The notes: generated by a model not told the origin, from the sequence alone. Positions 1,921 through 21,848 are shown, counted from the first letter of the stretch. The stretch is DNA of 24,000 nt from Halolamina pelagica (GCF_900115675.1 NZ_FOXI01000003.1:234767-258766), one strand, 5' to 3'. A program made the numbers and translations.

Positions 1921-4900
1921 CTACGTAGTATCGAACGTCACCTGTGACATCAGCCCGGGTCGGTCGTTCTGATCGTCTTGATCTTCCTCGGGAGCCACAA
2001 TCATCCAACAGACCAACTTCACCTCGTCTTCCTCAATCGGTGGGAGTGGATCAGGAGCCTCGAACGGCTGTAGCCCCAATTCCTCTACCTTGTCGACCAG
2101 CTCCCGTGACTTTTCGATAGGGCCGAGAGACTCGTCCTCGTAGATTTCTCGAAGCTCACGTTCGTACTTGCGACCCCACGGAGCCTCTACAGCCTCCACA
2201 GTCTCTTGAAGCTCGTCCTGGGTCATATCATCCGGCCAGTGGTCACGGAGATGTTGGCCCACCTCACGGAACAGTCGGCGGATGTCAGGCTGGACGTTCA
2301 ACGGGTCCGTTTGCTCTTGCCACTGACGATAGATGTCCTCCTGTGCCGTCTCCCACGCTTCGTAGATTTGGTCTCGCATTCCATCTGGGAGAGCCCGTTC
2401 AGTATCACGAGAGCATTCGATGCGCTTCAGACAGGTCAGAGTGTCCTGAACCAGTTCGTCGTCCCCATCCATCTCGTGTGGGACGAACCGCATGAAGACC
2501 TCGTCCCCGACCCGAGCACAGAAGAAATAGCCCGGGTCTTCACCGCGGAATCCAGACCCAGCGGCCCACGGAAGTGACGTGATCTGATCCTCACGGTCCT
2601 CCAGTCCCTCGCGGAGTTCCTGGCGATATTCCTCCCCGGAATACGCCGCCGCTTCAGCCCCGCCTTGTTCGTAGAAATCCGATTCCTCCCGCTGGATCGA
2701 GTCTATTTCTTCGACCTTCTCCGCGAAGTTCTGATTGAGGGTATCCATATCCGGTATAACGCCCCCACTCACGCCGATTGAGCGGGCCGCCTGGGTGAGT
2801 TTCTCCCGAACCCGGTGTTCGAGCTCAAGAAGATCGTCCAGTCGATCCTCGGGGAAGAACGAGAATGGATAGATTTCCGAGTGCGGGGAATTAACGCGGT
2901 CGATACGTCCGTTCCGCTGAACGACGCGCATCGGGTTCCACGGGAGGTCGTAGTTGATGACGTTTCGCGCCTCTTGGAGGTTGACCCCCTGACCCAGGAC
3001 GTCCGTCGCAATCAGAATATCAAACTCGTCCGTGGCATCCGGTGGGGCGTCACCTGAGTTCGGTGCAAATCCGTGGACAGCTTCCTCTCGTGTGACGCCG
3101 TACTTCGAGCCGTCGCCGGACACAGCGGCAATGCGGCCCTCGTAACACGACAAGTCTTCGTCCTCGCTGACGATGGACTCCAGGTACTCGTAAATCCAAT
3201 CGACGGTGTCCTCGTAGTAGGAGAACAATAGCACCTTGCGGTTCTGGCGGAAGGCCGCCTCAACATCCTCATCCGAAATCTGTCGCGCCTCAGCGTCCTC
3301 TCTCGCTGTCTCAACGATGTCCTCAAGCGTATCACGGAGCGCATAGAGTTTCTCGTCATCTTCTCGGCTGACCGCCTGGGCTCCGTCGCGCCATCGCTCC
3401 AGTATCTCGATGTCGTGCTCAAGATCAGCCCGAAGCTCGGCGGGATCAGCATCCGCCGCCGCCAGCGAGATATTTCCGTCGGTCGCGTCATCCAACAGCT
3501 CCTCCATCCCTTCATCGCTGTCCGTCTCAACCCACTCATCAATCGCATTCGTCTCCGGGAAGTAGCCCTCGTCCATAAGTTGGAGCGCGATGCGATTTTG
3601 CGAGATCATCCCGTCGAGGGTGTTCTTGAAAGCGTAGCTTGACGACTCGAACCGTTTCAGGAGCCCCGTCCGCAACAGCCCGACCAAGGAAAGTTCAGAT
3701 GCGTCCTCCTCGCCCTCTAAGTAGTAGGACGGTCGGTAACGGGCCAGCGTGAGCTCAGCTTCGTCCCTGTCCCCAGCCGCCAGCCCTTCCGCGACGTCGA
3801 GGAAATAGTCGTCACCAAACGTCTCTGTGAACGTGTAGTCGACACGCTTGGGCTTCGGATCCGGGAAATTAATCCGCACTTCGCCGCCGTCGCCATCAGG
3901 CATCGTCGCGTTCTCATAGTGGTTCTTGATGAACCGCCGAGTCCGGCGTACCGTCGTCTGGTCGAGAATGTCAAACAGCATATCTGGACTGAGATCCGAC
4001 GGGTCCTCCGCCTGGGCTTGCTTGAACTGGTCTCGAAGCGACCGGATACCCTCGTTGGCAAAGGTAGCGTCGTTCCGGATGAAATAATTCAGGAGGTAGT
4101 ACAGGTCCCACAGTGAGTTGTTGACCGGCGTGGCCGTGAGCATAACAACGTCCTTTGGCGGATCTCCCCGGAGGAGCGTCCGGAGTGCGTGGGATTGCTG
4201 GGTGCCAGGGTTGCGGAACGCATGAGCCTCGTCAATAACGACCAACTGATACTCGTCGACGGGAAGACTGAGATTGTTGGCGTCCCCACCGAGTTGGCTG
4301 TCGTTCCGGAGTTCAGCGTAGGATACCGTCTCAAATTGCACACCCCACTCGGCTGGCTTCTGTGTCCACATCCCGTCCCTGAGATACGCCGGTGCGACGA
4401 CGAGTGCACGCTGTCGGTTCTCCTGGACGTACTGTTCGAGGAGCTTGCCCCCGATATACGTCTTCCCGAGTCCGACCTCATCGGCAATGATGACGCCGTT
4501 GTGCTTGTCGAGGAACCGATTTGCTCTCCTGACGCTGTCCTGTTGGAAATTGGTGAGGTTGATCGCACCCCCGTCGTCCTCTCGTTCCTCCTCCAGTTCA
4601 TCACCGTACCGTTCGTAGAGCACCCGGAGGTAGATTAGGTGTGGATCGTAGGGCTCGAATCGTTCCTCGTAGAGACTGGCGAGGTCGAACGGTTCGCTTT
4701 CTTCCCAGAGGTCTTCGAACCAGTCGTTGATGCGTTCGGTTACGTGAGGGTCGTAAGTGCCGAGGTTCAGCTCCAGATTCGAGTTCAGTCCCGCGCCGGT
4801 GAAGTTCGATGACCCAGCAATCGCTCCCTGGCTGTCCGAGAACAAGTATGCCTTCCCGTGGACGAAGCTATCCTCGTGGCGGCGCACCTCAACGCGGTCG

Positions 4901-5292
4901 CTCCGGAGGAAATCCACGAGTTCCTGAAGTCCTTGGTCGACATCCCGCGAGAAACCAAGCAAGTCTCGGTCACGTTCGAGATTCTGATCCAGCGTCTGGA
5001 GTGCTTCCTCGATACGCTTGCGTTCATACGCTTCCCCTCGTGGTTCCTCAGGTTGTCGCCAGCGTTCCTTGCCTTCCTGATCGGGTTGAGCCCCGATGAG
5101 GAGATGGACCTGATCGACGTGTTCCAGCCCCTCAGCGACTGAAAAGTACCCTCTTGGGTTGAAGTAGCCGGTGACAATGTCGAGGTTGGGGTCGTTAGCC
5201 AGCCGATCATCCAAGTCCGAGAGATAGGCGTTGATTGCGGCGGCAAGCGTATTGCCGTCTCGGTTGTCGACGACTTGCGGCTGTTCAGTCAT
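1921..5292 (-). CDS. PLD-family (HKD) nuclease domain fused to an SNF2/SF2 helicase-ATPase
   Basis: There is a single HKD motif, HGKAYLFSD...GSSNFT (nt ~4800-4860). The SNF2 motifs are DEVGLGKT (4459-4482), VVIDEAHAFRN (DEAH at 4219-4233), LTATPVNN, and DVLGQGVNLQ...NYDLPWNPMRVVQRNGRIDR. The ORF-track start at 5325 is GTG. I prefer the ATG at 5292-5290 (MTEQPQVV...), which overlaps the upstream methyltransferase stop as ATGACTGA, giving 1123 aa. Confidence 0.9.
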   Translation of the reverse strand: MTEQPQVVDNRDGNTLAAAINAYLSDLDDRLANDPNLDIVTGYFNPRGYFSVAEGLEHVDQVHLLIGAQPDQEGKERWRQPEEPRGEAYERKRIEEALQTLDQNLERDRDLLGFSRDVDQGLQELVDFLRSDRVEVRRHEDSFVHGKAYLFSDSQGAIAGSSNFTGAGLNSNLELNLGTYDPHVTERINDWFEDLWEESEPFDLASLYEERFEPYDPHLIYLRVLYERYGDELEEEREDDGGAINLTNFQQDSVRRANRFLDKHNGVIIADEVGLGKTYIGGKLLEQYVQENRQRALVVAPAYLRDGMWTQKPAEWGVQFETVSYAELRNDSQLGGDANNLSLPVDEYQLVVIDEAHAFRNPGTQQSHALRTLLRGDPPKDVVMLTATPVNNSLWDLYYLLNYFIRNDATFANEGIRSLRDQFKQAQAEDPSDLSPDMLFDILDQTTVRRTRRFIKNHYENATMPDGDGGEVRINFPDPKPKRVDYTFTETFGDDYFLDVAEGLAAGDRDEAELTLARYRPSYYLEGEEDASELSLVGLLRTGLLKRFESSSYAFKNTLDGMISQNRIALQLMDEGYFPETNAIDEWVETDSDEGMEELLDDATDGNISLAAADADPAELRADLEHDIEILERWRDGAQAVSREDDEKLYALRDTLEDIVETAREDAEARQISDEDVEAAFRQNRKVLLFSYYEDTVDWIYEYLESIVSEDEDLSCYEGRIAAVSGDGSKYGVTREEAVHGFAPNSGDAPPDATDEFDILIATDVLGQGVNLQEARNVINYDLPWNPMRVVQRNGRIDRVNSPHSEIYPFSFFPEDRLDDLLELEHRVREKLTQAARSIGVSGGVIPDMDTLNQNFAEKVEEIDSIQREESDFYEQGGAEAAAYSGEEYRQELREGLEDREDQITSLPWAAGSGFRGEDPGYFFCARVGDEVFMRFVPHEMDGDDELVQDTLTCLKRIECSRDTERALPDGMRDQIYEAWETAQEDIYRQWQEQTDPLNVQPDIRRLFREVGQHLRDHWPDDMTQDELQETVEAVEAPWGRKYERELREIYEDESLGPIEKSRELVDKVEELGLQPFEAPDPLPPIEEDEVKLVCWMIVAPEEDQDDQNDRPGLMSQVTFDTT

Positions 5293-8200
5293 CGTTTCTG
5301 GTGCCAGCCGCTTGTTCTTCCTCACGGTCGGTGTGATCGAGGTCCAGTCTATCCGCCCAACTCGCGTAGTAATCGAGAACGCGTTCTAATCGTTCCTCAT
5401 AATCCCATCCGTTATGGAAGGTCTCAAAGATGACCTCAACGTGCTCGCGAGTCAGCCCATAGAGGTGTGCGACTACAGCATCCAGCTCGTAGATTTTCTC
5501 CTGTTTCGTTTCTTCGTCAAGTGGGCCGTATTCGACATCAACTGTATCCGCCCAGTCCTCGTAACGATCATCGACGGCGGCAAGTCGGCCGGAGAGTTCA
5601 GTAACACGTTGGCGGAGCTCATCATTGCGCCCTGGGCGAGGGACCGGGAGGGCATTTAGGATATGATATTTCAGGTGTGTCTCAACGAACCTTCGGACAT
5701 ACCAATCGAATGGAATTGAACTCATTATACCAAGTAGATACGCTTCATCTCTCTCATCCCCACTGGGCCAGATGAAATATGGTGCCATCTCCACTAAGAA
5801 TACCTCTGGCGGGAGGAGTGAGGGTATACATGTTCTTGTATCTGTACTTCGGGCTACATCTCGGAAGGTAAGTCGAGGTTCAAAACAGGAAAGCGTATTC
5901 CTGTCATTCACCCATTCTTCCGGCATATCAGAGAATGGAGAGCGGGATCCAGCGTATTGATATGAGTTTTCTCTTTTCTCCTGTACGTAATCGATCATAA
6001 CATCTGGATCCGCCCACCCGTACCTAACACCTGTATCCGGCTCCCAAATATTGAATGACCCTCCTTTGAAAATTGGCCAATAACTATCAGCGGGATCGTC
6101 AGTGAAATGCATCAGTTGGGTGCCATCGTCTTTTTTCTTATCTTGAGTTGAGTGGAGCTCGGTGTTTGGAACAACATTCCACTCACCATCGGAATCCAGA
6201 CGTGGATGCCGCGCCATTACTCCAAACACTTCTCCTGTTTCTGGGACAGCGGGTAATAGAGGGAAAGAAGAACTATCTGTCCAGTGTTTTGCCCGGGATT
6301 GGTCGAAGTAGTGAGGCTCCTCATTCACACCTTTCTCGAAGGCCTCTATGCTCGGAAATGGCCCTCTAAGCGGTAGCGGCGTATCATCTGAAGGCGTTTC
6401 CTTCTTGAAACTAGTAAGGGCGATTGTATATTGTGGATGGACTTCAGAGAATATCCAATTTTGATTATTAACTAAGAACGTGATATCTTTCACAACTGAC
6501 TCTTCGAGGATTTTCTTCCTGAATTGCTCTGTTGCGGGGCCAACAAACGCACTTCTCGGTAGAACTACGCCGACATGTCCCTTCTTGGAAACGAGATGCC
6601 AAAACCGCCAACAAAACGCCACATACATATCTGGATCGCCACCGCCGATGCCTGGATAAGGACCCTCAGTAAGCATCTTAGCACGTTTCTCCTCCTCTAA
6701 TTTCTCGCTTTTCAGCTCCTCTACGAGATCTGGGCGCTCACTTTCGAGTTCATCAATACGCTCCTCGCGTTTAGTTGAGGAAAGACCACGGAGTCCGGGG
6801 TAATGCCTTGCCCAAAACTCGTGCCTCTCCAGCTTTGCTTTTTCCCATGGCGGGTTTCCAACAACAACATCAAATCCTGGGTTTTCGGTGTCAAAAACTT
6901 CAGGAAATGCTGTGGGAAAATGGAGTGGACTCGTCGACTCCAGTACTTTTTGAGCTTGCTTATAAGCATCCGTTTTTCTAATCTGTATACTGGTGTCCGA
7001 AACCGGTTCAGTATCTATACTTTCATCAATTCGGGATGCGGCCAGTACATCGAATCGTGCCCTAACTTCCTCTAATTTCTCCTCGATCTCGGCCCGGGTT
7101 TCTCGGGCTTCTTGCACCTGTTCAGCACTGGCGTCAGCAAAGTTTCCGAGACGAGAAATGTCTTCTCGAATCTCGTTCATTACACTCTGACCTCCAGCGA
7201 ACATACCCAGTGAGGATTGTTCTACGTCAAGAATATCTGTCACTTCTCCCAGTGTGCCAATTCCCGACAGTGAATCACCAGTCACGAGATTGTAATCGAG
7301 GAAGGTCAACGGGAGACCGGGGACAAACGTGTGAACCCAAATTGAAAGACGAGCCAACTCTGTGGCAAGTGGATTTAGGTCCGCACCGTAAACACAGCGT
7401 CGAGCAACCTGACGGCGGAGAAGTTGCCCTCGCTCGATATTGGGGGTGTATTCCTCATTTTCAAATGCATCTTCCGCGGCATCTCTGAGATTGTCGAGTT
7501 CTTTTTCGACTGGCGTGAGTTGGTTTTCAGTAAGGTATGCTCTGAGTCTCGTTTCAATCCGATCCACCGCTCCAACCAGGAAATGCCCCGACCCCATTGC
7601 GATGTCCGAGACACGAATATCGAAGAAAGCCTCCGCGGCGGCGTTCTCACCCTCCTCCTCACGTAGCCGGTCGATGCGTTCAATGTGATCGTCAAGTGCG
7701 GGCTCAAGCGAATTATCCAAGAGATGCTCGACGAACCTCGTCTTTGTGTAGTAGGTGCCAGTAGCCTTCCGCTCACCGGACTGGCCGTGGAGGTATACTT
7801 CACCCTTCTCAACTACAACGTTCTCATCGTCTTCCCCGAGCGTTTGCTGACCACCACTATCGACCGGCTTGTAGTGTCCTTTCTCGTCAGTCGTCAACGG
7901 CTGTTCCGCAACAGAGAGCTCTGATTCGAGGAGACCCTCGTAGATGACACCGAACTCTCGGACGCCAATGTTCCGGAAATCGACCGGTCCTTGGTACCCA
8001 TCTTCAGTCTCGTCAATGAGTAATCGGAATAGCACTGGGCCAAACTCGGCGTTGTTCAATCGGGTGTCCGAAAGCCGCGCACCCGCTTCGGAGACATCCT
8101 CATCTTCGGAGAGAATCCGCCCCTCGTAGGCGGGGAGTCCCATTTCCTCGTGACCGTGGTGGATAGCACGCGAGAGCCGCATCACATCGTCCCAGTGGTC

Positions 8201-9695: not shown

Positions 9696-10295
9696 CTAGA
9701 TGACAGTATGAATTTGTGAAGTGATGTTTGCGAAAGCCTCAGAAGCGGCATCAAGATCAGTAACCCCTGTACAAAGTAACTTCCCACTCGCAAATACGAG
9801 AATAATATGATCGGAGCCACGGTACACCAACGCGGGGAACTGTTCCGGCTCGTATTCCGCGGTATTCATCCCCAACTCAAGAGTAAGAAGTTCCAGCGGT
9901 ATTGGTGAGCCGAAGTCGGTCGTAGCTACGATGTTGTTGATCTCGGTCGCTGGTTTGTAATCGAACTTCAGAATATCACGCATCACTCCATTTATTTGCT
10001 CAGTTTTATTGTTGAATTCTTCTATTGAGCCACATCCTGTAATAGAACAACGGCCAGATCGATAGAATGCGACATATGTATTATCAGGCGGAAACCGAGT
10101 TTGAAGCCAGTGGTTTTGCGATGGTTCGTACGTTACACTGGTGACATCCTCGCGTTCAGAGAACGTTTCCGCTAAGGCCGCAAGATCCAGCTCTTGCCGG
10201 TATGTGATCATACCTGAGACGTTGGCGATCTTCAGGTCAACCACTATTCTGTCATAACCATTGGTGGTAATAAGAGAAGCGGGTTTAGTAGTCAC
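9696..10295 (-). CDS. tbp: Divergent TATA-box-binding protein (TBP) paralog
   Basis: A two-repeat TBP architecture is recognisable. The second repeat is canonical: INNIVATTDFGSPIPLELLTLELGMNTAEYEPEQFPALVYRGSDHIILVFASGKLLCTGV. The first repeat is degenerate: KIANVSGMITYRQELDLAALAETF...TYEPSQNHWLQTRFPPDNTYVAFYRSGRCSITGC. The start codon is GTG (10295-10293), and the first in-frame ATG would truncate repeat 1. The gene is AT-rich (33% GC in the 9961-10020 sample). Confidence 0.85.
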   Translation of the reverse strand: MTTKPASLITTNGYDRIVVDLKIANVSGMITYRQELDLAALAETFSEREDVTSVTYEPSQNHWLQTRFPPDNTYVAFYRSGRCSITGCGSIEEFNNKTEQINGVMRDILKFDYKPATEINNIVATTDFGSPIPLELLTLELGMNTAEYEPEQFPALVYRGSDHIILVFASGKLLCTGVTDLDAASEAFANITSQIHTVI

Positions 10296-10379
10296 CTGGT
10301 ATGAGCTACTGGCTACTAATCTACTGAGTTACGGCATCAGTGAAGCCCCATCATCCTGAGATCTCCACTCTTTTCTTCT

Positions 10380-10396
10380 GTTGATGGCATATCAGC
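10380..10396 (-). repeat. Motif copy E2: GCTGA-T-ATGCCATCAAC
   Basis: Read directly from the sequence. It lies 19 nt downstream of the phosphoesterase stop (10416). In this copy GGCATA (10386-10391) and TATGCC (10399-10404) can form a 6-bp hairpin that encloses TCAGCGG. Confidence 0.8.
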
Positions 10397-10415: not shown

Positions 10416-11417
10416 CTACAGTTTCCGCCTGAGGGTGTCGACCGCCCCACTTTCGACGGTTAGAAACCAGACAGAAGGGTCCGAAGCGTCGGTGTTAGTG
10501 CTAATGTCTTCTGTCGAACCAGCGTAAAGGAACTCACCATCGTCCCAGTTCGGCCGCTCTGGATCGTGAAGGTGTCCAGACACTACGTAGTCGAAACCAC
10601 CGAACGGCTTGCTGTTAATTTCGTCTAAGTCTACATCCGCACCGGAGCGGAACGGGACAAGTGTCTGGTGTAGCACGAGGATCGAAACCGAACTCATCAG
10701 TAAAGTTGGCACGTCCATCTCCTCAACCGAGAATTTCGATCCGGGCCGGTGATCGTAACCATAGACTTTCAGGTCATCTGTAATGTCTGAGCCCTCCATA
10801 TCGAGGTGAGTTGCAACGCCTTGACGTTCCCATCGTTTGAGGAGACGAGTCCCACGATCGCACTCGTGATTTCCCAAGATATAGTAGAAATCAATACCGG
10901 CATCTTGCATCCGCTGGAACGCCGCATCAACAGTATTGCAATCCTCCTCGGTAGCGTAATCGTGAAACACGTCTCCAGTATGAAGTATGGAATCGGCGTC
11001 GTGGGCTATGGCAACCTCAATTGCCTGTTCGAATTTTCCAGCACAGTCAATCGATTGATGGGGCTTGCTGGGGTGTTTCTTTCGTCCAACGTGGCTATCG
11101 CCCATAACCATCAGACGACAATCCGGAGTGGAATCCACGCGGTCCGCGCCCCATTTGTCAGAGCTATGTAACTTCTTTTTCCGACCATTGTCCCACGTCT
11201 GTCCATACCCCTCCCGGATCACGTATTCCGCTCCTTCCACCCATTCTGTCAGCGGGTTATGCTTGTTCCAGATTTCCAGCTCAAACTGTTTCCCAGAGCT
11301 ATCTTCTACAGTAAGTCGCCAATCTAACTTCTCATCATTGTGATGAACCGCTTCAACAACAGTTACCGAGATAGAGTCGAGATAAGAACGATCATCAATT
11401 GCTTCCCAAGAGGACAT
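10416..11417 (-). CDS. OB-fold-like N-terminal domain fused to a calcineurin-like metallophosphoesterase (Mre11/SbcD-type nuclease fold)
   Basis: All phosphoesterase motifs occur in order: MGDSHVG, HTGDVFHD, LGNHECD, VLHQ, SGHLHD. The ~100 N-terminal residues (WRLTVEDSSGKQFELEIWNKH...YVIREG) look like a beta-rich OB-type module. ATG start at 11417. Confidence 0.85.
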   Translation of the reverse strand: MSSWEAIDDRSYLDSISVTVVEAVHHNDEKLDWRLTVEDSSGKQFELEIWNKHNPLTEWVEGAEYVIREGYGQTWDNGRKKKLHSSDKWGADRVDSTPDCRLMVMGDSHVGRKKHPSKPHQSIDCAGKFEQAIEVAIAHDADSILHTGDVFHDYATEEDCNTVDAAFQRMQDAGIDFYYILGNHECDRGTRLLKRWERQGVATHLDMEGSDITDDLKVYGYDHRPGSKFSVEEMDVPTLLMSSVSILVLHQTLVPFRSGADVDLDEINSKPFGGFDYVVSGHLHDPERPNWDDGEFLYAGSTEDISTNTDASDPSVWFLTVESGAVDTLRRKL

Positions 11418-11531: not shown

Positions 11532-12035
11532 TTAGCTATCCATCATCTCTCGAAATTCTTGCTTCAGTTCCTCGGCTCGCTCAAACCGGTCGTCACTCGT
11601 TGCCAACGCTTCTTCGGAGGCGACAGGGTCGTCGTTGACAGCCCGCTCGTAGGCCGCACTGTATCGCCACGTCGAAGCTCTCCGAATGAAGCTATAGTAC
11701 TGTCCGAGTGTGCTGAACAACTCCCATGTCTCGGTGCCGTTTTCGTAGCTTTCGAGCTCGCTGTCAAGAGCTTCCTCAAGCGACTCGTAACTGTTCGTGG
11801 CTCGCTCGAAGTGCATCATTGCCCGCGAATAGTCGCTCGCCTCAAGGGCGTCGTTGCCCGACACGTACTGATCAACCGCCTCTTGTTCAGTCGACTCGTG
11901 TTCCTCCAGCCACGCGTTCACAACCTCGTCGGGACTTTGCTCATCCGTTGTTTCCGATGTACAGCCCGCAAACAGGATTGTTGAGCCGGCTACGGCCAGT
12001 ACGTTACGCCGCGTTCGACCAGAGAGATCAGTCAT
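11532..12035 (-). CDS. Secreted Tat-type lipoprotein, helical, unknown function
   Basis: From the ATG at 12035 the protein begins MTDLSGRTRRNVLAVAGSTILFAGC. This gives a twin-arginine motif, a hydrophobic stretch and a lipobox Cys. The ORF-track start at 12110 is GTG and adds a non-signal-like extension. The ATG overlaps the upstream stop as ATGACTGA. It is the last gene of the six-gene operon. Confidence 0.7.
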   Translation of the reverse strand: MTDLSGRTRRNVLAVAGSTILFAGCTSETTDEQSPDEVVNAWLEEHESTEQEAVDQYVSGNDALEASDYSRAMMHFERATNSYESLEEALDSELESYENGTETWELFSTLGQYYSFIRRASTWRYSAAYERAVNDDPVASEEALATSDDRFERAEELKQEFREMMDS

Positions 12036-12390
12036 CAGCAACCCTCCTGTTGGCGGCGTCGACGAACCCCTGTCTCCTGAGGTTCTTGCCCCACGTCGAG
12101 AGGAACTCACTCAGGTCCAGACCTGATTCGTCGTGCTCGTGGGCCAGCGGGTGCTGTGTGTACCTAACCGCCCGCCACTCGTCGTCGTCGATCATGAACA
12201 CAACTTCGGGATCGCTCATCAGGTCGCCACGTTGCGTGTAGTAGTGCCCGACACTGAGACGACCATCCCCGATCTTCTCAATAGTCAAGTCTTCGAATCC
12301 GTCCACCGTAATCGTGTAGTTCTCGTTGACGTTCATCTCCGCAACCGATGGAACGCCCAGATTGCCCAGCATCTCCGAGATGGCGTCCAT
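12028..12390 (-). CDS. Hypothetical protein (120 aa)
   Basis: Acidic ORF in the operon. The ORF-track start at 12393 is TTG, and the next codon is ATG (12390-12388), sharing 1 nt with the upstream TGA. It contains LSVGHYYTQRGDLMSDPEVVF. I vaguely associate this motif with small proteins of plasmids and integrative elements, but I cannot name a family with confidence. Confidence 0.65.
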   Translation of the reverse strand: MDAISEMLGNLGVPSVAEMNVNENYTITVDGFEDLTIEKIGDGRLSVGHYYTQRGDLMSDPEVVFMIDDDEWRAVRYTQHPLAHEHDESGLDLSEFLSTWGKNLRRQGFVDAANRRVADD

Positions 12391-12803
12391 CAATCCAACA
12401 CCTCCGCGCCTTCAGCGAATCGTTCAATCTCGCTCTTGCTCAGTGTCCAGCCGTTCTCTGGGAGTTCCGCGACAACGTTGCGTTTGAACCGTTGGTAGTG
12501 AGTTACCGCGAAGTGATCGTTGAATGCGTGAGCGAGAAGCGCAATAGCGAGTTGGGCGGGACCGCTACCCCCGTAGTTCCACTCGAAACCAGCCGGGCTC
12601 GCCGACAGTAAGTCGTACCGACAGTCCAACGGCTCGCCATCGACAGTGACAGTACATTCTTCACCAACTGGGGCGGTCCTGTCTCGCTGGCCTCGATAAA
12701 TCGATTGACTGTCGTGGTCGCTTAACGTATCCTCGGCTGACAGGCCAGATGAAGTCGCCGAAGAGGTCTTTCTTCGGGTCAACCCCTGGGTATCGGGGCT
12801 CAT
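12390..12803 (-). CDS. Hypothetical protein with FEWNYGGSGPAQLAIALL motif (DUF6166-like, tentative)
   Basis: 137-aa ORF whose ATG at 12803 overlaps the upstream stop (ATGA). The GYGGSGPAQLA(L/I)ALL block followed by Y..FK..V...LP...W.L matches my memory of an uncharacterised phage/mobile-element domain family. There is an S/T-rich disordered N-terminus. Confidence 0.65.
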   Translation of the reverse strand: MSPDTQGLTRRKTSSATSSGLSAEDTLSDHDSQSIYRGQRDRTAPVGEECTVTVDGEPLDCRYDLLSASPAGFEWNYGGSGPAQLAIALLAHAFNDHFAVTHYQRFKRNVVAELPENGWTLSKSEIERFAEGAEVLD

Positions 12804-13183
12804 CGGGCCACCTCCACTATCCGGTCCAGGGCATCCCGAAGCTCGTGGGCGGTATCCGTGAGTTCTTGAGCCTGAGTTTCAAGCTCGGCGGCATTCGATT
12901 CGAGATTGTCCGCCGCCTCGATGAGCTCTGTCTCAAGCGTCTCGACGTCAACCTGACCGACCTCTATCCGTACACGTCGGATGTGCTTACACTCGGAAAC
13001 AGACTCACGGTACTCGAAGTCCGGACACGTACACGCGGGTTCTCGAAGGTCGACGGTATACTCGGAACCACTCTGAGTTGTGACAGAGAACAGTGATTGT
13101 GCCTCCTCGATGACGGTCATATGTTCCGTGGCGGCCCGGAGAGTCCGTGGCCCGATGTCAGGCTGGACTGATTCCGAAGACAT
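12800..13183 (-). CDS. SWIM-type zinc-finger protein with C-terminal coiled coil
   Basis: It carries the CxCx(n)CxH signature, CTCPDFEYRESVSECKHI. The C-terminal heptad-like acidic helix is ETLETELIEAADNLESNAAELETQAQELTDTAHELRDALD. The ATG at 13183 shares 1 nt with the upstream TGA. Confidence 0.8.
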   Translation of the reverse strand: MSSESVQPDIGPRTLRAATEHMTVIEEAQSLFSVTTQSGSEYTVDLREPACTCPDFEYRESVSECKHIRRVRIEVGQVDVETLETELIEAADNLESNAAELETQAQELTDTAHELRDALDRIVEVAR

Positions 13184-13677
13184 CAGACATCACCTCTGTC
13201 GTCCTGGACGGGCACCCAGTAGGGCTCGTTGCTGTCGAACTTCTCGACCCGCTTGAAGTGAACATCCTCGTCGGCGAGATCGATTGCTTGCTTCGCCGCC
13301 GACAGCGTCAGGGTGCCGGTTCGGAACGTGTAGCCTTTTTCCAGTACGCTGGGGTCAGTCGCCATTCGTACGTCGACGACCGGCCCGAACCGTCGCTTGT
13401 TCACACAGCCAGCCCGGGAACTCCACGGCCCTTCGAGCGTGACCTGTTCACCGTCGACGGTCGTAATCTCGAACGACCGACCGGAGAAGCCGCCGTCATT
13501 GCCGTCACCGCTCCAGGCGAAGTATTCGACGTACCCGTTATCGATGGCTGTCCACAGACTGTCTTCGTGCTCGAACCGGAGCTCAGACCGTTCTGGAGTT
13601 TCGTCAACGAGGACTTCCAGCCGGGGATCATTTCCGACGTCTTCCCGCCAGTCAATCTGGGCGTCGAGAATGTTCAT
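13183..13677 (-). CDS. Hypothetical protein (164 aa)
   Basis: Acidic ORF with a true ATG (13677-13675) overlapping the upstream stop (ATGA). No family recognised. Confidence 0.65.
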   Translation of the reverse strand: MNILDAQIDWREDVGNDPRLEVLVDETPERSELRFEHEDSLWTAIDNGYVEYFAWSGDGNDGGFSGRSFEITTVDGEQVTLEGPWSSRAGCVNKRRFGPVVDVRMATDPSVLEKGYTFRTGTLTLSAAKQAIDLADEDVHFKRVEKFDSNEPYWVPVQDDRGDV

Positions 13678-13916
13678 CGCCGATCACCGTCACACTCGAC
13701 TGGAAGATCACGCTTGCTCAGAACCTCGACGCCGCACTCGATACAGCGGAGGTATCGCTCCAAGTACTCGGTCTGACACTCATGTCGGCGCGAAGGGTCA
13801 GGATGCTTTCCAGGTACCCACTCGCTTTTGTCGATCACGAGGTGAGCGTCGACGTGTCTCGCTTCAGGGTGGTTCGGTGCCGATGCGCTTATTCCGTAGC
13901 TGTCGCTATCTGACAT
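13674..13916 (-). CDS. Small Cys/His-containing (zinc-ribbon-like) protein, first gene of the six-gene operon
   Basis: The HEC...CIECG arrangement (RRHECQTEYLERYLRCIECGVEV) is present. The ORF-track start at 13979 is TTG. I prefer the ATG at 13916 (MSDSDSYGISA..., 80 aa). The TTG start cannot be excluded, because a TATATC box at ~14019-14026 would place a TSS near 13995. Confidence 0.5.
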   Translation of the reverse strand: MSDSDSYGISASAPNHPEARHVDAHLVIDKSEWVPGKHPDPSRRHECQTEYLERYLRCIECGVEVLSKRDLPVECDGDRR

Positions 13917-13946
13917 TGGGTTCTCGTCTCCACGGGTAACCCACAG

Positions 13947-13968
13947 AATCGGTGCTACTACACCGATT
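13947..13968 (-). promoter_or_regulatory. Perfect 8-bp inverted repeat (AATCGGTG-N6-CACCGATT) in the leader/promoter-proximal region of the six-gene operon
   Basis: Read directly from the sequence: 13947-13954 aatcggtg, 13961-13968 caccgatt. It lies 31-52 nt upstream of the ATG at 13916. Confidence 0.4.
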
Positions 13969-14253
13969 TTTCTCCTCAAACCAGTTGTTTGAAGCTGTAG
14001 CTGGGGTTTTCCGTGTTTAGATATACGCGGGGATAGGTGTTAAGTGTTTACTTTCTGTAACTAATGAATCAAGATACTACGGCCAGTTTTTCTTTTATGT
14101 CCTTGTTTGATGGTATATCTGAGATGTGTGAGTAACTCGGACTGTATTCCAAACCGTGATACGCGTTAACACTAATGCTCTATGTGGCAAGTCGCCTTAC
14201 TAATTCGTTAATATGCCACCTTGCCAAGTATAGAGATATTGTTAACTCACCAC

Positions 14254-14272
14254 ATAAAATAGTCCGAAGGAC
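14254..14272 (-). terminator. Weak candidate terminator for the RHH-helicase operon (short hairpin + TATTTTAT)
   Basis: On the gene strand, GTCCTTCGGAC (4-bp stem) is followed by TATTTTAT, about 65 nt after the helicase stop. Archaeal termination uses oligo-T tracts, and this is only a T4 run. Confidence 0.3.
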
Positions 14273-14291
14273 CGTTTCCCGGGCACTCAGG

Positions 14292-14307
14292 GTTGATGGC
14301 ATTCAGC
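14292..14307 (-). repeat. Motif copy E4: GCTGA-ATGCCATCAAC
   Basis: Read directly from the sequence. It lies 31 nt downstream of the helicase stop (14339). Confidence 0.8.
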
Positions 14308-14338
14308 GGTTGGTCTGTTGATGACTCCGGATTTGTGG

Positions 14339-16195
14339 TTAGTTTTCGGGGTGGATTCGAAAATGGCCGTGGGGATTGAGGGTGTCGATACCTGTATCGA
14401 ACCACTCTTTCTTCCCGTTGAATCCGGTTATGCTGTCGACAGCATTCAGGTCCCGAAGGGTGTAGAGATGCTTCCGGACAGTACGTTCACCGTTACCGGT
14501 TTTCTCTTGAATTTCAGCCTTGGAGACTGATTCGTTGTTCTTGAGGACTCTCTTTGTTTCCTCGATCTTGTCACTCCACTTCTGTGGTCGCTTACTCACG
14601 ACTTTACGGGGAATCCAGTCGGGAATGCACGCTGTGTAGACGTAGATGTCCGCCCCAGCGATGTCGTCCTTCCGACCAGCACGGAAGATGGCCTGTGCGA
14701 CTTCGCTGTGAACCATATGGTGGTAGTACCGGTCGCCAATCTCGCCGTAGCTCTTGTCAACACCGTACTTGCCGTTGCTTTCAATGGCGTAGCCGTCCAA
14801 GGCCGCGAGCTGTTGGATGGCACGGTTGCCAGGGTGGAGCGAGCCGAGTACCGCAAGGAGCGTTTCATCCTCGAGTTCGCTGTGGGAACGCACTTTCCCG
14901 AGGTGAAGTTCTTTGTTGTCCACGTATTTGCCGTGGATGATGCTTTTCTTAGCCTGGAGACTTGTGATAGTCGGGACCATCCGGTCGTGGTGCTCACTAA
15001 TTTCGTGGAGGTAGCCGTTGAACTTCCATCGAGAGACATTTTTCGCCTTCGCTGAGAACGCCGTTGTTTCCTCGGTAAGTTGGGTGATCTTGTAGCCGAG
15101 GGTATCACGAACGAACTCAGCACGTTCTTCGTCGGTCATAAAGTCCTCGTCGTAGTCGAGCTCACGTCCGAGGCGACCCTCCCAGATTTCCGGGGTTGGT
15201 GTTCCGTCCATAGCGATGGCCGCCCACGCACTCGTGAGGGCTTCGGGAGGGTTCCGGATGGTGACCGATGGTTCGTCCCTGTCTTTGCCCTCGTCGTGGA
15301 GGAGTACCTTCTTTCCAATCTCCGTACGGCGAAGCCCTGTGTCCGTCACTTCATCGTTCTCGACGGGCTTACCGTTGAGCACAGCCAGCGTGAGGAGTGG
15401 AGAATCGGCACGACCGCCCTGATTCGAGTAGCCGATGTCCGGATCGACCAGGAGCTCACGATCCATAATGATCTCAATCCATTCCTCTCGCTGTTCATCG
15501 TCGGCACGGATCAGGTCATTCTTTGACCCAGCGTCGATGTCCGAGTGGTGCTCAAGGAACGTAGAGATAGCCGCCGTGTAGACGCTCTGGCTGACAGTGT
15601 ACTCGAAGGCCCCGCCAGCATCCTCGTCGAACAGCACAGCACGTTCTTCGACATAGCTCAAGATGTTGGCGTGGACTGGGTGACCGATTAGGAGCTCGTA
15701 GTCCTCAGCGTCGAAGTCGCACGCGGCCGAGTATTCACACTTGCCATCGTGCTGGCACGGAATCTTGTCGCCCATAAACTCGTGGATGATGCTCGGGGGA
15801 ACGAGCTGGCGTTGAAGTTCCGCCATCAGTTCGGACCACTTCAGGTCCATCCCGGAGACTTCCTTGCCGTCGTGCTCACCCTTGGCGGTAGGGCACCAAC
15901 GATTGAAGACGGGAAGCCGCTTGATATTTTCAGGTTCGAGACCGGCCTCAATGGCGTACTCCTCGATCTGTTCACGGGTGTCGATTTGCTTCGTGAACAC
16001 GGTGAGGGGATAGTCGACGTCGTCGTCAGCCGGGAGGTTGCCCGCACTCCACGTCTTGCCGAGCGTCATCAGAATAGGAAGGAGGTGATTTCCGCCTTGG
16101 TTGATGGCATCCTTGATGGTGTTGTAAGACTTGTTTCGCCACTCCTGAAGGGCGTCCACTTTGGCGGAGGTTGGGGTCTGTTCAATTCTCGACAT
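14339..16195 (-). CDS. P-loop NTPase / SF2-helicase-like protein with a four-Cys cluster and C-terminal winged-HTH; probable element replication/maintenance protein
   Basis: Walker A-like LMTLGKTW and Walker B-like AVLFDEDAGG are present. Four Cys lie between them (RWCPTAKGEH ... IPCQHDGKCEYSAACDF), an arrangement like the FeS/Zn insertion of XPD/DinG-type helicases. There is a motif VI-like VAQAIFRAGRKDD. The C-terminal HTH is SKAEIQEKTGNGERTVRKHLYTLRDLNAV. The ATG at 16195 lies 6 nt after the RHH gene stop. Confidence 0.75.
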   Translation of the reverse strand: MSRIEQTPTSAKVDALQEWRNKSYNTIKDAINQGGNHLLPILMTLGKTWSAGNLPADDDVDYPLTVFTKQIDTREQIEEYAIEAGLEPENIKRLPVFNRWCPTAKGEHDGKEVSGMDLKWSELMAELQRQLVPPSIIHEFMGDKIPCQHDGKCEYSAACDFDAEDYELLIGHPVHANILSYVEERAVLFDEDAGGAFEYTVSQSVYTAAISTFLEHHSDIDAGSKNDLIRADDEQREEWIEIIMDRELLVDPDIGYSNQGGRADSPLLTLAVLNGKPVENDEVTDTGLRRTEIGKKVLLHDEGKDRDEPSVTIRNPPEALTSAWAAIAMDGTPTPEIWEGRLGRELDYDEDFMTDEERAEFVRDTLGYKITQLTEETTAFSAKAKNVSRWKFNGYLHEISEHHDRMVPTITSLQAKKSIIHGKYVDNKELHLGKVRSHSELEDETLLAVLGSLHPGNRAIQQLAALDGYAIESNGKYGVDKSYGEIGDRYYHHMVHSEVAQAIFRAGRKDDIAGADIYVYTACIPDWIPRKVVSKRPQKWSDKIEETKRVLKNNESVSKAEIQEKTGNGERTVRKHLYTLRDLNAVDSITGFNGKKEWFDTGIDTLNPHGHFRIHPEN

Positions 16196-16201
16196 CCAGA
16201 G

Positions 16202-16501
16202 TTACTCGTCCAGCTCAGTAAGCTTCCGTTCGCGTTCGACGTGATAGCCTATAGCGTCATCAGCGAGGTGAGAGAGCTTCGCGTCAGTCCGTTCGAGGAA
16301 CATCTGGTGAATATCGTCGATGACGATGGTGGTTCGGACATAGTCATTTTCTGGACTTCGCCGTGCGTCTTCTGACGGCATCTCTCGTTCATCGTTGTTG
16401 ATTGCCTCAATGTGTTGTCGGACGGCTCGGGAGAGCGACAAGGCACTTCCGTCTATGAATTTTTTGTGCGAAGTTTGGATGTTGATTGTCTTCTGGATCA
16501 T
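16202..16501 (-). CDS. Ribbon-helix-helix (CopG/Arc/MetJ-like) DNA-binding protein, possibly tandem RHH
   Basis: 99 aa with a true ATG. Strand-helix-helix patterns occur at KTINIQTSHKKFIDGSALSLSRAVRQHIEAI and again at RTTIVIDDIHQMFLERTDAKLSHLADDAIGYHV. A perfect palindrome lies directly upstream of its start. Confidence 0.65.
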   Translation of the reverse strand: MIQKTINIQTSHKKFIDGSALSLSRAVRQHIEAINNDEREMPSEDARRSPENDYVRTTIVIDDIHQMFLERTDAKLSHLADDAIGYHVERERKLTELDE

Positions 16502-16506
16502 CTTCC

Positions 16507-16524
16507 TTGCATAACATTATGCAA
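16507..16524. promoter_or_regulatory. Perfect palindrome TTGCATAA-CA-TTATGCAA; candidate operator of the RHH-helicase operon
   Basis: The 8-bp arms are perfectly complementary with a 2-nt spacer. The palindrome ends 5 nt upstream of the RHH ATG (16501), between a T-rich TATA-like stretch (CTTTTTGA on the gene strand) and the start codon. Confidence 0.55.
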
Positions 16525-16802
16525 TACCCGTTCAAAAAGTTTCTGTATGGTGATATATCAGGTTACTGGTTTCTCTGAGTTACTTTCATCGAGATACAAA
16601 CCACCTGTTCGAGGATATACGAGTAGTTCGATACCACTCAATACAAAACCAGAACTGACGATTCTGGGATATATATCGTCTATACAATGACAGACGGCGT
16701 ACGGCTGGATATGTCGAATAATCGATTCAGATCGTAGAACATTGGTAATGAGATGTACGTAAGTTTGTGGTCTCGTCGCCACCAATCAGCTCACTAATCC
16801 GA

Positions 16803-16819
16803 GCTGACATGCCATCACC
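16803..16819 (+). repeat. Motif copy E5 (inverted orientation): GCTGA-C-ATGCCATCACC
   Basis: Read directly from the plus strand, inside the 16502-16952 AT-rich intergenic region. It is the only copy in the opposite orientation. Confidence 0.7.
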
Positions 16820-16952
16820 CGTATCGTCCAGTACCACGATAGCGGCGAACCTCCCTACATTTTGAGTTTCAGCGGGTCTTTGTAAAATTGGTCGGGGGGT
16901 GTCAAAGGCCTTTACCGGGGCGTTTAGGGGCGTCGAAGTTTGGGGGACAACG

Positions 16953-17807
16953 TCACTTGGAGTCGAGTGTCTCCTGTTCGAGGTTCGGCTCCTCCCACGG
17001 ATCATCGAAGTCGACTGTGCTGAGTGCGTGATCAAATTCCTCGTGGGTGAACTCCGCGCTGGTATCGTCGGCTTGCCCCACAAGTTCCATATTGATGCTC
17101 TTGTACCGCCGTTCGAGATCACTCATCGAATCAGTCCGTGACGAATGGATCAAAAAATGGCCGTAGCCGCGATTTTTTCCCGAGCCAATCGACGTGTGCA
17201 TATCGAAGGCAACATCGTGTTGACCATCCGGATTGAGTTCGCCAACGGGGAAATCGTATCGTGGCTCACGGCCTTCTTCAGCGGCGGTGACACGCTCCTC
17301 AGCAATTCGCTCGAAGGTGTTATTGAGATAGTCACATAGTCGGCTGGATTGTGCCTGGGCACATACTACGGCCGCTCTGAGGGCACAGACACGTCCCCGC
17401 TCGTTCTCAGCGGACCAACTGTCGACGACATCTACTTGTCCCGTTCCGAGTTGATAGAGAGATCGGACCTGTGAGGTCACGTCGCTCTCAATACTGGTGT
17501 CTTCGGTCGCTATCGTTAGAATCCGCTTCCAGAACATATTGTCGTATCCCGACCTAACGAGCTCCCAGGCGGCCCACGCCGAGGCTTCTTTGTCTGACCG
17601 CCTCACTGATTTTTGTAGCAACGAACTCACGTCAAAGATATTGTATCGGGCATCGGTCTGAAACCGTCCAGTGGGATCACCATCATCCCCTACATTCTTT
17701 GTTGCCTGTTCGCCCTCCTCGCTTTCCTCTAACTCTCCATCTTCGCCGAAGCGAAGTTGATCGCTGGACTTGTCAGTCACGGGTATTCCCAAGTAAAGAT
17801 AGGACAT
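16953..17807 (-). CDS. MgsA/WRNIP1 C-terminal-domain-like protein without an AAA+ module (tentative)
   Basis: SSLLQKSVRRSDKEASAWAAWELVRSGYDNMFWKRILTIATEDTS resembles the MgsA_C signature (hKSiRGSDpdAAlyW...G.D...i.RRl...A.EDig). No Walker motifs are present. The ORF-track start at 17882 is TTG. I prefer the ATG at 17807 (MSYLYLGIPV..., 284 aa). Confidence 0.55.
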   Translation of the reverse strand: MSYLYLGIPVTDKSSDQLRFGEDGELEESEEGEQATKNVGDDGDPTGRFQTDARYNIFDVSSLLQKSVRRSDKEASAWAAWELVRSGYDNMFWKRILTIATEDTSIESDVTSQVRSLYQLGTGQVDVVDSWSAENERGRVCALRAAVVCAQAQSSRLCDYLNNTFERIAEERVTAAEEGREPRYDFPVGELNPDGQHDVAFDMHTSIGSGKNRGYGHFLIHSSRTDSMSDLERRYKSINMELVGQADDTSAEFTHEEFDHALSTVDFDDPWEEPNLEQETLDSK

Positions 17808-17916
17808 ATAAGATAATAAACCTTTACTAATTGATACAATTGGCGAAAAATGTGATTTCGGTCGTCGGATGTCAAGGGACAACTACCTTCAATACGTGGT
17901 CTGATAGCTAAGTAAG

Positions 17917-19266: not shown

Positions 19267-19386
19267 TAAAATAACACCATCCCCCCGATGAGCAATCACC
19301 TTCTTAGCGAAGTCTTTCCTCACTTTTTCCTAAAACCTACTACGGCCCGCAACCGCCTTCAGCGTACTATTCGAGCCGTAATTTCC

Positions 19387-20422: not shown

Positions 20423-21673
20423 TCACCAGATTTGTTCAGCGGCGTCGTTCCGCGTTTCCGCGTCTGAGTGAAGATACTTCATCGTCGTCGTGACGCTCTT
20501 GTGGCGAAGTTGCTCCTTCGCGTGGTGCGGACCGATGTGATTCGCCCAGTATGTCGCAACCCCGTGACGAATCGCGTACCACGTTATGTCTTTGTGATCT
20601 GGGATAGGAAGATCACCGTCGTCGACGAGCCGACTCAGTAGGTAGTTACATGACTTCGAACTGTACGTAGTCCCTTGCTTCGTGAGCCAGAGCTCGTCCC
20701 GACCACTGTACTTGTCGTACGTTGCTCGTTCTTCTAACCATCGTTCAAGTACTCTTGCTGTGCGTCCCTTGATCGAACAGTTCCAGTGAGCTTCGTTCTT
20801 TGTGGACTCGTCCTTGGGGATGTTGAGCTCGTTGTTCTCAAGGTTAACCCAGTCTGTGGTAGCTCGGCCTACTTCGATGGGACGGAGTCCAGTATCAAGC
20901 GTTACAGCGATGATCGACGGTTCTTTCCAAGAGTTGGCCTGTTTGAATTGCTCAGGGCCGACCTCTGACTTTGGTACACCGAGTCGCTGAGAGACGAACG
21001 TCTTCAGCCGGTCACGCTCCTCAGAGGACATATCGCTATGGTAGCTCTTGATCGAGTTGTATTCCAGCGCCGCCTGATAGAGTGGCTTGAACGCGGTTCG
21101 GCGAAGATAGTCGCGTTCATCCCCGGTTGCTTGACTCAGTTCCGGCTTCGGTTCCCAGTCGTAATCCGTTCCGTGGATGTGGTTCTGGTACTTGAATAGC
21201 CGCTGGACAGCTTTCCCGTAGTGAAGTACGCTTGAATCAGCCATCCCATCTGAGCGGTTGAGGAGGCGGATAAAGCGGTCAGCGTGGTCGGGAGTAAACT
21301 CTGTCGTGTAGGCGTCTTCGTCTTCCCAGAGCCACCTGAATACGATTTCGAGCTTGTAGTGCGTCGACTGAAGGGTACTCTGTGCGAGGCCCTGGCCTTT
21401 CTCTGGGTGTTTCCCGTACGAGCCGAGCCACGAAAGTACCTCCTGTTTGAAGTCGCGGTAGTCGTCGACCATGTTGAGCCCGTATGCTTCGAGGTCTTCG
21501 CGTGATCGTTCACTAATGAGCGGGAAATCGAGTTCCACTGGTTCCGGAGCCGATGGAAGGCTGTCCTGAGGGGTGCCATCACCGGCGGGGAGGTTGTCCA
21601 GCGGATCGGGCTGGTTGGTCACCCGCGCACACCTCGATTTGTCTGTGTGCCATGACACTTTATCGAATCGCAA
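20423..21673 (-). CDS. int: Tyrosine recombinase / phage-type integrase
   Basis: The C-terminal catalytic region reads LDTGLRPIEV (Arg), WYAIRHGVATYW (HxxR) and LRHKSVTTTMKYLH (His and nucleophilic Tyr). It lies next to a tRNA 3' end. The start is uncertain: 21673 is TTG, and an in-frame GTG occurs at 21622. Confidence 0.9.
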   Translation of the reverse strand: MRFDKVSWHTDKSRCARVTNQPDPLDNLPAGDGTPQDSLPSAPEPVELDFPLISERSREDLEAYGLNMVDDYRDFKQEVLSWLGSYGKHPEKGQGLAQSTLQSTHYKLEIVFRWLWEDEDAYTTEFTPDHADRFIRLLNRSDGMADSSVLHYGKAVQRLFKYQNHIHGTDYDWEPKPELSQATGDERDYLRRTAFKPLYQAALEYNSIKSYHSDMSSEERDRLKTFVSQRLGVPKSEVGPEQFKQANSWKEPSIIAVTLDTGLRPIEVGRATTDWVNLENNELNIPKDESTKNEAHWNCSIKGRTARVLERWLEERATYDKYSGRDELWLTKQGTTYSSKSCNYLLSRLVDDGDLPIPDHKDITWYAIRHGVATYWANHIGPHHAKEQLRHKSVTTTMKYLHSDAETRNDAAEQIW

Positions 21674-21776: not shown

Positions 21777-21848
21777 AGCCTAGGCCGGAATTTGAATCCG
21801 GGGTCTCGTCCTTACCAAGGACGCGCTTTACCGCTAAGCTACCCAGGC
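21777..21848 (-). tRNA. tRNA-Thr (anticodon GGU), 72 nt, no encoded CCA
   Basis: Hand-folded cloverleaf on the minus strand. The acceptor is GCCTGGG/CCTAGGC (one G-U pair). The D arm is GCTT-AGCGGTA-AAGC. The anticodon arm is CGTCC-TTGGTAA-GGACG, with GGT at positions 34-36. The variable loop is AGACC. The T arm is CCGGA-TTCAAAT-TCCGG. The discriminator is T. Confidence 0.9.

Follow-up and report, generated by a model that had tools for sequence, protein, structure and literature searches.

The TATA-binding protein (TBP) of archaea is a two-repeat protein (Pfam PF00352 x2) with a saddle fold, as in Pyrococcus woesei (1AIS/1PCZ) and M. jannaschii (2Z8U), and the canonical form carries four DNA-intercalating Phe residues, one pair per lobe. 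A different type is known from the haloarchaea, where Becker et al. (2014; PMC4230888) described TbpC of Halobacterium (VNG5142) and 21 'tbpC-like' homologues, which have lost the N-terminal Phe pair and keep the C-terminal pair, and which were judged non-functional or highly specialised. The tbpC transcript was reported as undetected in strain PHH1 (PMC4230888), and the delta-tbpC strain of Halobacterium NRC-1 has no apparent phenotype, although the R-M genes were not examined in that work (PMC2121645). Loss of Phe residues does not by itself mean loss of function, since the eukaryotic TBP-related factor 2 (TRF2/TLF/TBPL1), which arose independently, has lost Phe residues in both lobes and has no known link to defence, is a functional and specialised initiation factor for a subset of promoters. 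TBP-domain proteins are also present in the bacterial TOTE and TALON conflict systems (Aravind et al. 2022, cited in PMC12458937), and the small DNA-binding regulators encoded beside bacterial restriction and defence modules are the Xre-type controller (C) proteins of Type II R-M systems and the BrxR/CapW-type WYL regulators of BREX and other defence islands. Here we analysed a TBP paralogue on a genomic island of Halolamina pelagica (GCF_900115675.1), within a window of 24,000 nucleotides (NZ_FOXI01000003.1:234767-258766). It shares with TbpC the loss of the N-terminal Phe pair, the retention of the C-terminal pair, the accessory location on a plasmid or island and the position next to MTase-helicase genes, but it is only about 33% identical to TbpC of strain NRC-1 and forms a distinct subclade with its own N-lobe signature (N-H-W in place of Y-H-G, a 6-residue insertion and conserved Cys). 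We found that this gene and the TbpC-type genes lie, with few exceptions, beside DNA-methylation-based defence systems.

Results

The TBP paralogue and its island

The initial annotation described a 199-aa two-repeat TBP with a GTG start, a near-canonical C-terminal repeat and a degenerate N-terminal repeat, and this observation was confirmed, with several corrections. The ORF exists, and Pfam recognises TBP in two stretches (110.3 bits against a cut-off of 22.9), while a search of the host genome, which has two canonical TBPs plus this gene, scores the C-terminal repeat at 71.7 bits and the N-terminal repeat at 41.8 bits. The described motifs are present, namely AEYEPEQFPALVYR...LVFASGKLLCTG in the C-lobe and TYEPSQNHWLQTRF...RSGRCSITGCG in the N-lobe. 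However, all ten NCBIfam TBP models score below their cut-offs (the best is 115.7 bits against 181), and phmmer against the PDB aligns only the C-repeat. The homologues, of which there are at least 348 at 57–71% identity, are mostly 182 aa long and align from an in-frame GTG further downstream, thus the true product is probably 182 aa and not 199 aa. The gene had been called very AT-rich (33% GC in one sample), but it is 47.0% GC overall and only a local 60-nt window drops to 30%, while the island is 53% GC and the host flank 70%. The motif copy ('E2') said to bound the gene upstream could only be matched to a weak two-copy repeat, 80% identical, which may be chance. 'Degenerate' is the wrong word as well, because the altered N-lobe is conserved across the clade (see below). 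The island setting was confirmed: the integrase gene abuts a tRNA-Thr(GGT) gene, where GC content rises from about 53% to 70%, and a copy of the tRNA 3' end lies about 4.7 kb before the window start, which bounds an element of about 26.5 kb (Table 1).

Table 1. Features of the window around the TBP paralogue (positions counted from the first nucleotide of the window unless stated otherwise)
Position	Strand	Feature	Evidence
1921..5325	minus	PLD nuclease + SNF2 helicase fusion, start overlapping the MTase 3' end; restriction component of the module	Pfam PLDc_2, SNF2-rel_dom and Helicase_C; PADLOC 'HKD+Snf2' 198 bits and DrmD 135 bits
5285..9484	minus	Giant N6-adenine DNA methyltransferase (Type IIG-like), directly downstream of the TBP gene on the same strand; defence partner	PADLOC REase_MTase_IIG 859 bits and DrmMI 240 bits; Pfam Eco57I and N6_Mtase; homologues next to clade TBPs in four of the examined loci (L121, L125, L126 and L127)
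9696..10295	minus	ORF of 199 aa as initially annotated (GTG at 10295)
9696..10244	minus	Coding sequence of the TBP paralogue (182 aa, GTG at 10244), here called the TBPx subclade of TbpC-like TBPs	Pfam, homologue alignment and predicted structure (see text)
9834..9857	minus	C-lobe stirrup EYEPEQFP (residues 130-137), with the first intercalating Phe and, in canonical TBPs, the TFB/TFIIB-contact acidic residues	Y131-E132-P133-E134 and F136-P137 invariant in the 52-sequence clade alignment, E130 and Q135 at least 90% conserved; Y131 to F136 invariant across the aligned representatives of the divergent subclades
10032..10130	minus	Remodelled N-lobe DNA-face segment (residues 39-71)	Column-by-column comparison with the two host TBPs and 14 clade members
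10245..10295	minus	5' extension of the ORF, probably untranslated	Homologues start at the position of the GTG at 10244; the gene call of the source genome is 182 aa
10266..10275	minus	Candidate TATA-like promoter box TCTTATTACC, centred 27 nt upstream of the GTG at 10244	Related box in most clade genes; promoter function inferred
10365-10384 and 14402-14421		Weak two-copy repeat, 80% identical
10416..11417	minus	Mre11-like metallophosphoesterase directly upstream of the TBP gene; link to the TBP uncertain	Pfam Metallophos; NCBIfam Mre11_Halo 105 bits, far below the cut-off; not a consistent neighbour in other loci
20423..21673	minus	Tyrosine integrase of the integrated element	Pfam Phage_integrase
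21777..21848	minus	tRNA-Thr(GGT), the integration target	ARAGORN
21777-21820		3' 44 nt of the tRNA, repeated at 230044-230087 of the host contig (C22 of genome G000 in our numbering)	Search of the host genome's DNA, 93% identical 44-nt copy

Predicted structure and conservation of the two lobes

AlphaFold2, run on the 52-sequence clade alignment, gave a model with pLDDT 92.7 and pTM 0.83, with secondary structure in the order expected for the full two-lobe TBP topology (S1-H1-S2-S5-H2, twice), and Foldseek returned 44 chains of solved TBPs at TM-scores of 0.81–0.87. The protein was compared column by column with the two host TBPs, to which it is 32–35% identical. In the C-lobe every canonical contact position is kept, i.e. 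N104, V106, the stirrup with F136, L149, F151 and T159. In the N-lobe the equivalent positions are replaced (F to N44, PG to H45-W46, L to A59, F to Y61, V to S67, and T to A69 in most members), and there is also a 6-residue insertion and a conserved C66. These replacements are not signs of decay. H45, W46, Y61 and C66 are invariant in the 52 sequences, which have 28 invariant columns at about 60% identity, and within the clade the N-lobe is more constrained than the C-lobe (median dN/dS 0.115 against 0.17; mean pairwise identity 71% against 61%). The N-lobe has been rebuilt, not degraded. Conservation of all DNA-intercalating Phe and TFB-contact residues, or interruption of the gene in related strains, had been named beforehand as grounds for rejecting the initial proposal, but the N-lobe Phe pair is not conserved, and the gene is intact in the clade loci examined, with no stops inside any of the 20 matches.

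Distribution and genomic context

The clade was found in 19 of 401 haloarchaeal genomes and 15 of 91 genera, and in none of the 7 congeners searched, which is a patchy, accessory distribution. Four plasmid copies all lie beside Type I R-M operons (hsdM-S-R plus a YgjP/SprT-like protease), and two further contigs show the same arrangement. The flanks of all the genome hits were then examined using BLAST, PADLOC and Pfam on the neighbouring genes, and all 22 clade loci are beside an MTase-containing restriction system: 13 beside Type I R-M systems, five beside the window-type giant MTase plus PLD-SNF2 pair, three beside an Eco57I-like Type IIG enzyme and one beside a disrupted MmeI-like Type IIG enzyme. 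The orientation varies, since the TBP gene can be upstream on the same strand, convergent at the 3' end, or divergent, and partner types switch repeatedly within closely related TBPs. Integrases, replication genes and other conserved element genes are not consistent neighbours. A further scan of genome contigs, based on an alignment that included the host TBPs and therefore on generic motifs, recovered canonical TBPs, which were reused as controls; of the 80 loci, only four had R-M hits within ±10 kb, and on a maximum-likelihood tree those four fall with the divergent TBPs. On this tree a 100/99 branch separates 33 divergent haloarchaeal TBP-like proteins from 82 canonical TBPs. Of the 33, 32 are within 3 kb of R-M genes and the single exception abuts a C5 DNA methyltransferase, whereas none of the 82 is within this distance. 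The branch unites our clade with three other loci (L011, L012 and L019), of which L011 and L019 (the same loci as L139 and L148 of the survey described below) are 68% and 55% identical to NRC-1 TbpC. Thus the clade groups with the TbpC-type proteins rather than with the TbpE-type core TBPs, although the branches are long and NRC-1 TbpC itself was not in that tree.

On pNRC100, the TbpC-type gene has Y and Y at the two N-lobe Phe positions and overlaps by 4 bp the end of a helicase gene, which PADLOC calls BrxHII/DrmD-like at 573 bits and which follows a DNA MTase gene. 'TBP C' of Halobacterium sp. DL1 follows an MTase and an HsdR, and that of Halorientalis litorea lies between a DUF1156/DUF499 system and McrBC. 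None of the papers that we read, which were open-access only and included the H. walsbyi PL100 genome paper, two haloarchaeal or archaeal R-M surveys and the tbpC papers (PMC4230888, PMC2121645), links these genes to restriction.

Survey with TbpC of Halobacterium NRC-1

To test the association without bias, NRC-1 TbpC was used as the query across 401 genomes, and ±8 kb was taken around each of the top 60 hits and of 20 clearly canonical hits from the same list. Each TBP was classified by its four Phe positions, and R-M adjacency was scored mostly with a BLAST protein panel rather than with full HMM annotation. All 60 lack the N-lobe pair (57 Y-Y-F-F, 2 H-Y-F-F and 1 R-Y-F-F), and only 2 of them contain stops. 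Of the 60, 53 have a panel hit within 3 kb, and in 21 the nearest hit lies within 30 bp of the TBP gene. PADLOC and the ORF layout placed four more beside BREX (BrxC-PglZ) or an MTase-specificity fusion. Of the remaining three, one locus is an uninformative 3-kb contig and two are unresolved. Thus 57 of 59 informative TbpC-type loci have a methylation-based defence system within about 3 kb, while none of the 20 F-F-F-F TBPs has a panel hit within ±8 kb. The Fisher P-value is about 1e-16, but the loci share ancestry, so this overstates independence, and some of these loci are the same as ones in the sets above. They lie on plasmids, long chromosomal contigs and viruses alike.

Haloviruses and the reverse association

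In the phage database the only hits are haloviruses HJTV-2 and HRTV-9, whose TBPs also lack the N-lobe Phe pair. In HJTV-2 the TBP gene lies about 400 bp from genes for an N4-cytosine MTase and an Eco29kI endonuclease, and in HRTV-9 it lies 16 bp after that for a Type IIG enzyme. A scan of IMG/VR with a clade-only alignment found no member of this particular subclade on viral contigs, as all hits were at 36% identity or less. Among the IMG/VR hits plus HRTV-9, 3 of 3 Phe-pair-less TBPs are R-M-adjacent, against 1 of 9 F-F-F-F TBPs within 3 kb. The reverse association does not hold. Among the 30 closest homologues of the NRC-1 helicase, about 18 have a TbpC gene at their 3' end, while in the 12 others, and in 8 more distant ones, no TBP-like gene lies in the roughly 3–4 kb examined beyond the helicase 3' end (the only side inspected), and one of these loci retains a 31-residue remnant. 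The TBP is therefore an optional accessory of these systems and not an obligatory part of the NRC-1-type MTase-helicase operon.

Promoter-like sequences

Of 21 clade genes, 18 start with GTG, and most have a box of the type GGACTT(T/A)T(A/C)C or similar that ends roughly 22–26 nt before the start codon in the sequences checked by eye. The position of the box suggests a leaderless mRNA, which, considering the features of haloarchaeal translation, is probably weakly translated. A search for an element shared between the TBP gene and the R-M operons found no special box, and the R-M promoters look like ordinary TATA boxes.

Discussion

The gene encodes an intact member of the haloarchaeal TbpC-like class, with a predicted two-lobe saddle in which the C-lobe keeps the Phe pair and the stirrup that contacts TFB in canonical TBPs, and the N-lobe has been rebuilt into a different and strongly conserved surface. 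Here the partner module is the adjacent giant MTase plus PLD-SNF2 nuclease-helicase. With roughly even confidence, we assume that the protein is a module-specific transcription factor that sets the level or timing of expression of the neighbouring R-M operon and probably of itself, either as a dedicated initiation factor for a non-canonical box or as a competitive half-functional TBP that holds the promoter with TFB. It would thus be a functional analogue of the bacterial C proteins or the BrxR-type regulators, with which it shares the location beside diverse restriction modules, movement with them and presence in only a subset of them. The fold is unrelated to either, since Pfam detects only the TBP domain, with neither the Xre-type helix-turn-helix nor the wHTH-WYL-WCX architecture, and PADLOC returns no hit for the protein. 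In addition, no TPR, OB/CSD, RNase H or YprA hits were found among the window ORFs, while the TOTE and TALON clusters, mainly bacterial, are defined by TPR-OB/CSD partners, RNase H-type effectors or YprA helicases; they are a loose precedent only, and the protein here is a close derivative of the host-type archaeal initiation factor. The fold, as far as a confident model and profile matches can establish it, the asymmetry of the lobes, purifying selection and the genomic linkage rest on our data, whereas expression, TFB binding, promoter binding and the regulatory role are inferred. Retention of TFB contact is inferred from established TBP-TFB structures (1AIS, 1D3U), but the stirrup is also conserved for structural and DNA-binding reasons, so this contact is not proven. 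The fact that no binding site shared between the TBP gene and the R-M promoters was found, the absence of an apparent phenotype of the delta-tbpC strain and the undetected transcript in strain PHH1 also speak against a regulator.

It is possible, though less likely, that the protein is an immune sensor, decoy or effector that monitors or interferes with transcription during infection, for example as a bait for viral factors that hijack host TBP/TFB or a blocker of viral promoters, which would work with or trigger the neighbouring system. The strict linkage to diverse defence systems, including BREX and McrBC neighbourhoods, the lopsided TBPs of haloviruses, which suggest an arms race around TBP, the TBP-domain proteins of TOTE and TALON, and the rebuilt N-lobe, which could be a protein-binding surface, are in line with this. 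However, nearly every resolved partner contains or accompanies a DNA MTase, so that the linkage is not to defence genes in general, no signalling or effector domain is fused to the protein or consistently adjacent, and the viral copies beside the viruses' own R-M genes fit regulation equally well. A non-transcriptional accessory subunit, in which the saddle binds or bends DNA for the R-M/helicase machine (for loading, site recognition or roadblock sensing, for instance), is somewhat less likely still. TBP-fold domains serve as nucleic-acid-binding modules in enzymes, such as the TBP-like substrate-binding domain of RNase HIII, and the 4-bp overlap in the NRC-1 type, which suggests co-translation, and the loci with an R-M hit within 30 bp would suit a stoichiometric subunit. 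On the other hand, closely related TBPs partner with unrelated enzyme architectures (Type I, Type IIG, MTase+PLD-SNF2 and BREX), many close helicase homologues lack any TBP gene in the region examined, the orientation is often convergent or divergent, the gene has its own conserved promoter-like box and weak GTG start, and the full two-lobe architecture with the stirrup is kept.

The initial annotation proposed that a mobile-element TBP with one altered DNA-contact half could redirect or sequester the host transcription machinery toward element promoters, or act as a decoy. This interpretation is supported only in part: the gene is a TBP paralogue on an integrated element with one half altered and the other, including the stirrup, intact, but its class had not been recognised as TbpC-like, the N-lobe is not decaying, and the gene tracks methylation-based defence modules rather than mobile elements as such. 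Retargeting or sequestration remains possible, but the likely target is the neighbouring R-M operon rather than island promoters in general. A generic element factor that retargets host RNA polymerase to island, plasmid or viral promoters at large, with R-M genes as common island cargo, is doubtful; the integrated element, the relatives on plasmids and viruses and the patchy distribution agree with it, but the adjacency is to the R-M genes themselves, often within tens of bp, whatever the replicon, and was not seen within ±8 kb for the 20 F-F-F-F controls. A decaying copy that hitch-hikes with R-M cassettes is very unlikely, in spite of the PHH1 and NRC-1 reports and the 31-residue remnant, considering the intact reading frames in the clade loci examined, the dN/dS of 0.12–0.17, the invariant columns, the confident predicted fold and the conserved box and start codon.

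A further reach of the data, which we regard as speculative and unlikely but not excluded, is that TbpC-like proteins are a defence-dedicated branch of the basal transcription machinery, in which a general transcription factor has been recruited on plasmids, islands and viruses as the switch of methylation-based immunity. The rebuilt N-lobe would read a signal, such as a viral takeover factor, a partner like the second TBP-like protein or an unusual DNA state, and the intact C-lobe with TFB would turn the restriction module on or off. This would be an archaeal immune-regulatory principle with no bacterial counterpart.

The asymmetry of the lobes was already published for TbpC and its homologues, while the genomic linkage has, in the open-access literature searched, not been reported. 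TbpC has been an orphan since the genome of Halobacterium NRC-1 was sequenced, dispensable, barely expressed and suspected of being dead, and its lopsided relatives were catalogued in 2014 without a proposed role. The fact that 57 of 59 informative loci of this type, and tbpC itself in a model organism with an existing knockout, sit beside a DNA-methyltransferase-based defence system makes the role of TbpC open to direct experiment. It also suggests how archaeal R-M systems, which lack known controller proteins, might be regulated. It would be a clear case of a general transcription factor paralogue dedicated to a single mobile gene module, and it adds archaea-specific content to the emerging theme of TBP-fold proteins in conflict systems.

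Accessory features of the TBP-linked loci

A second, very divergent TBP-like gene (about 177 aa, 27–32% identical to the first) often accompanies the clade TBP at Type I R-M operons, as in the clade loci L007, L008, L111, L114 and L118, where it sits either directly after the clade TBP or at the opposite end of the operon. Similar F-Y-F-F or H-Y-F-F copies accompany the TbpC-type genes in L175–L177, L179, L183 and L184 of the TbpC-type survey. The two may form a pair, for example a heterodimer or an activator/repressor couple. At another clade locus, L119, the MmeI-like Type IIG gene next to the clade TBP appears to be split into a 788-aa part and a 214-aa TaqI_C-domain part by an inserted 397-aa ORF with no family hit, while the TBP gene stays intact. 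After a helicase 83% identical to the NRC-1 one (L229), only the first 31 residues of a TbpC-like gene remain, an example of loss of the TBP from the operon. Moreover, the genome that carries the window has another BrxHII-like helicase on a different contig, 36% identical to the NRC-1 one, but no TbpC-like gene can accompany it, because the genome holds only three TBP genes.

Haloviruses of the Hafunaviridae, HJTV-2 and HRTV-9, carry their own R-M genes with a Phe-pair-less TBP beside them. HJTV-2 also has tRNA-Thr(GGT) next to an integrase, and tRNA-Thr(GGT) is the tRNA species into which the island in the window is integrated. The rest of this island carries further nuclease-like cargo, as listed in the table. 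In addition, a 20-nt direct repeat (80% identical) has one copy between the phosphoesterase gene and the TBP gene and a second copy 4 kb away, which may be the 'motif E' of the initial annotation, although with two copies only it could be chance.

Coordinates of the accessory features (L, fetched locus; G000:C13, a contig of the window's own genome)
Locus	Position	Feature
L111	10739-11272	Second TBP-like gene
L007	9738-10271	Second TBP-like gene
L008	8733-9266	Second TBP-like gene
L114	8764-9294	Second TBP-like gene
L118	2254-2784	Second TBP-like gene
L119	10474-15041	Split MmeI-like Type IIG gene
L189	2064-7906	TbpC-type gene and BrxC-PglZ
L190	5805-7931	TbpC-type gene and BrxC-PglZ
L211 (HJTV-2, MZ334513.1)	27080-35643	Viral R-M genes and TBP
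L212 (HRTV-9, MZ334505.1)		Viral R-M genes and TBP
L229	863-955	Remnant of TbpC-like gene
G000:C13	65384-68038	BrxHII-like helicase
Window	698-1741	37-kD nucleoid-associated-protein-like gene
Window	10244	GTG start codon of the clade TBP
Window	10365-10384, 14402-14421	20-nt direct repeat
Window	11532-20286	Rest of the island
Window	12390-13183	DUF6166 + SWIM zinc-finger pair
Window	14339-16195	618-aa protein with no family hit
Window	17917-19266	FokI-cleavage-domain protein
Window	19387-20286	GIY-YIG protein

TbpC-type genes lie directly downstream of BrxC-PglZ at L189 and L190, so the linkage extends to BREX systems. Furthermore, 18 of 21 clade genes (the window gene and those in L007–L127) use GTG as start codon on what looks like a leaderless transcript. 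This is an unusually conserved weak start, which may keep protein levels low.
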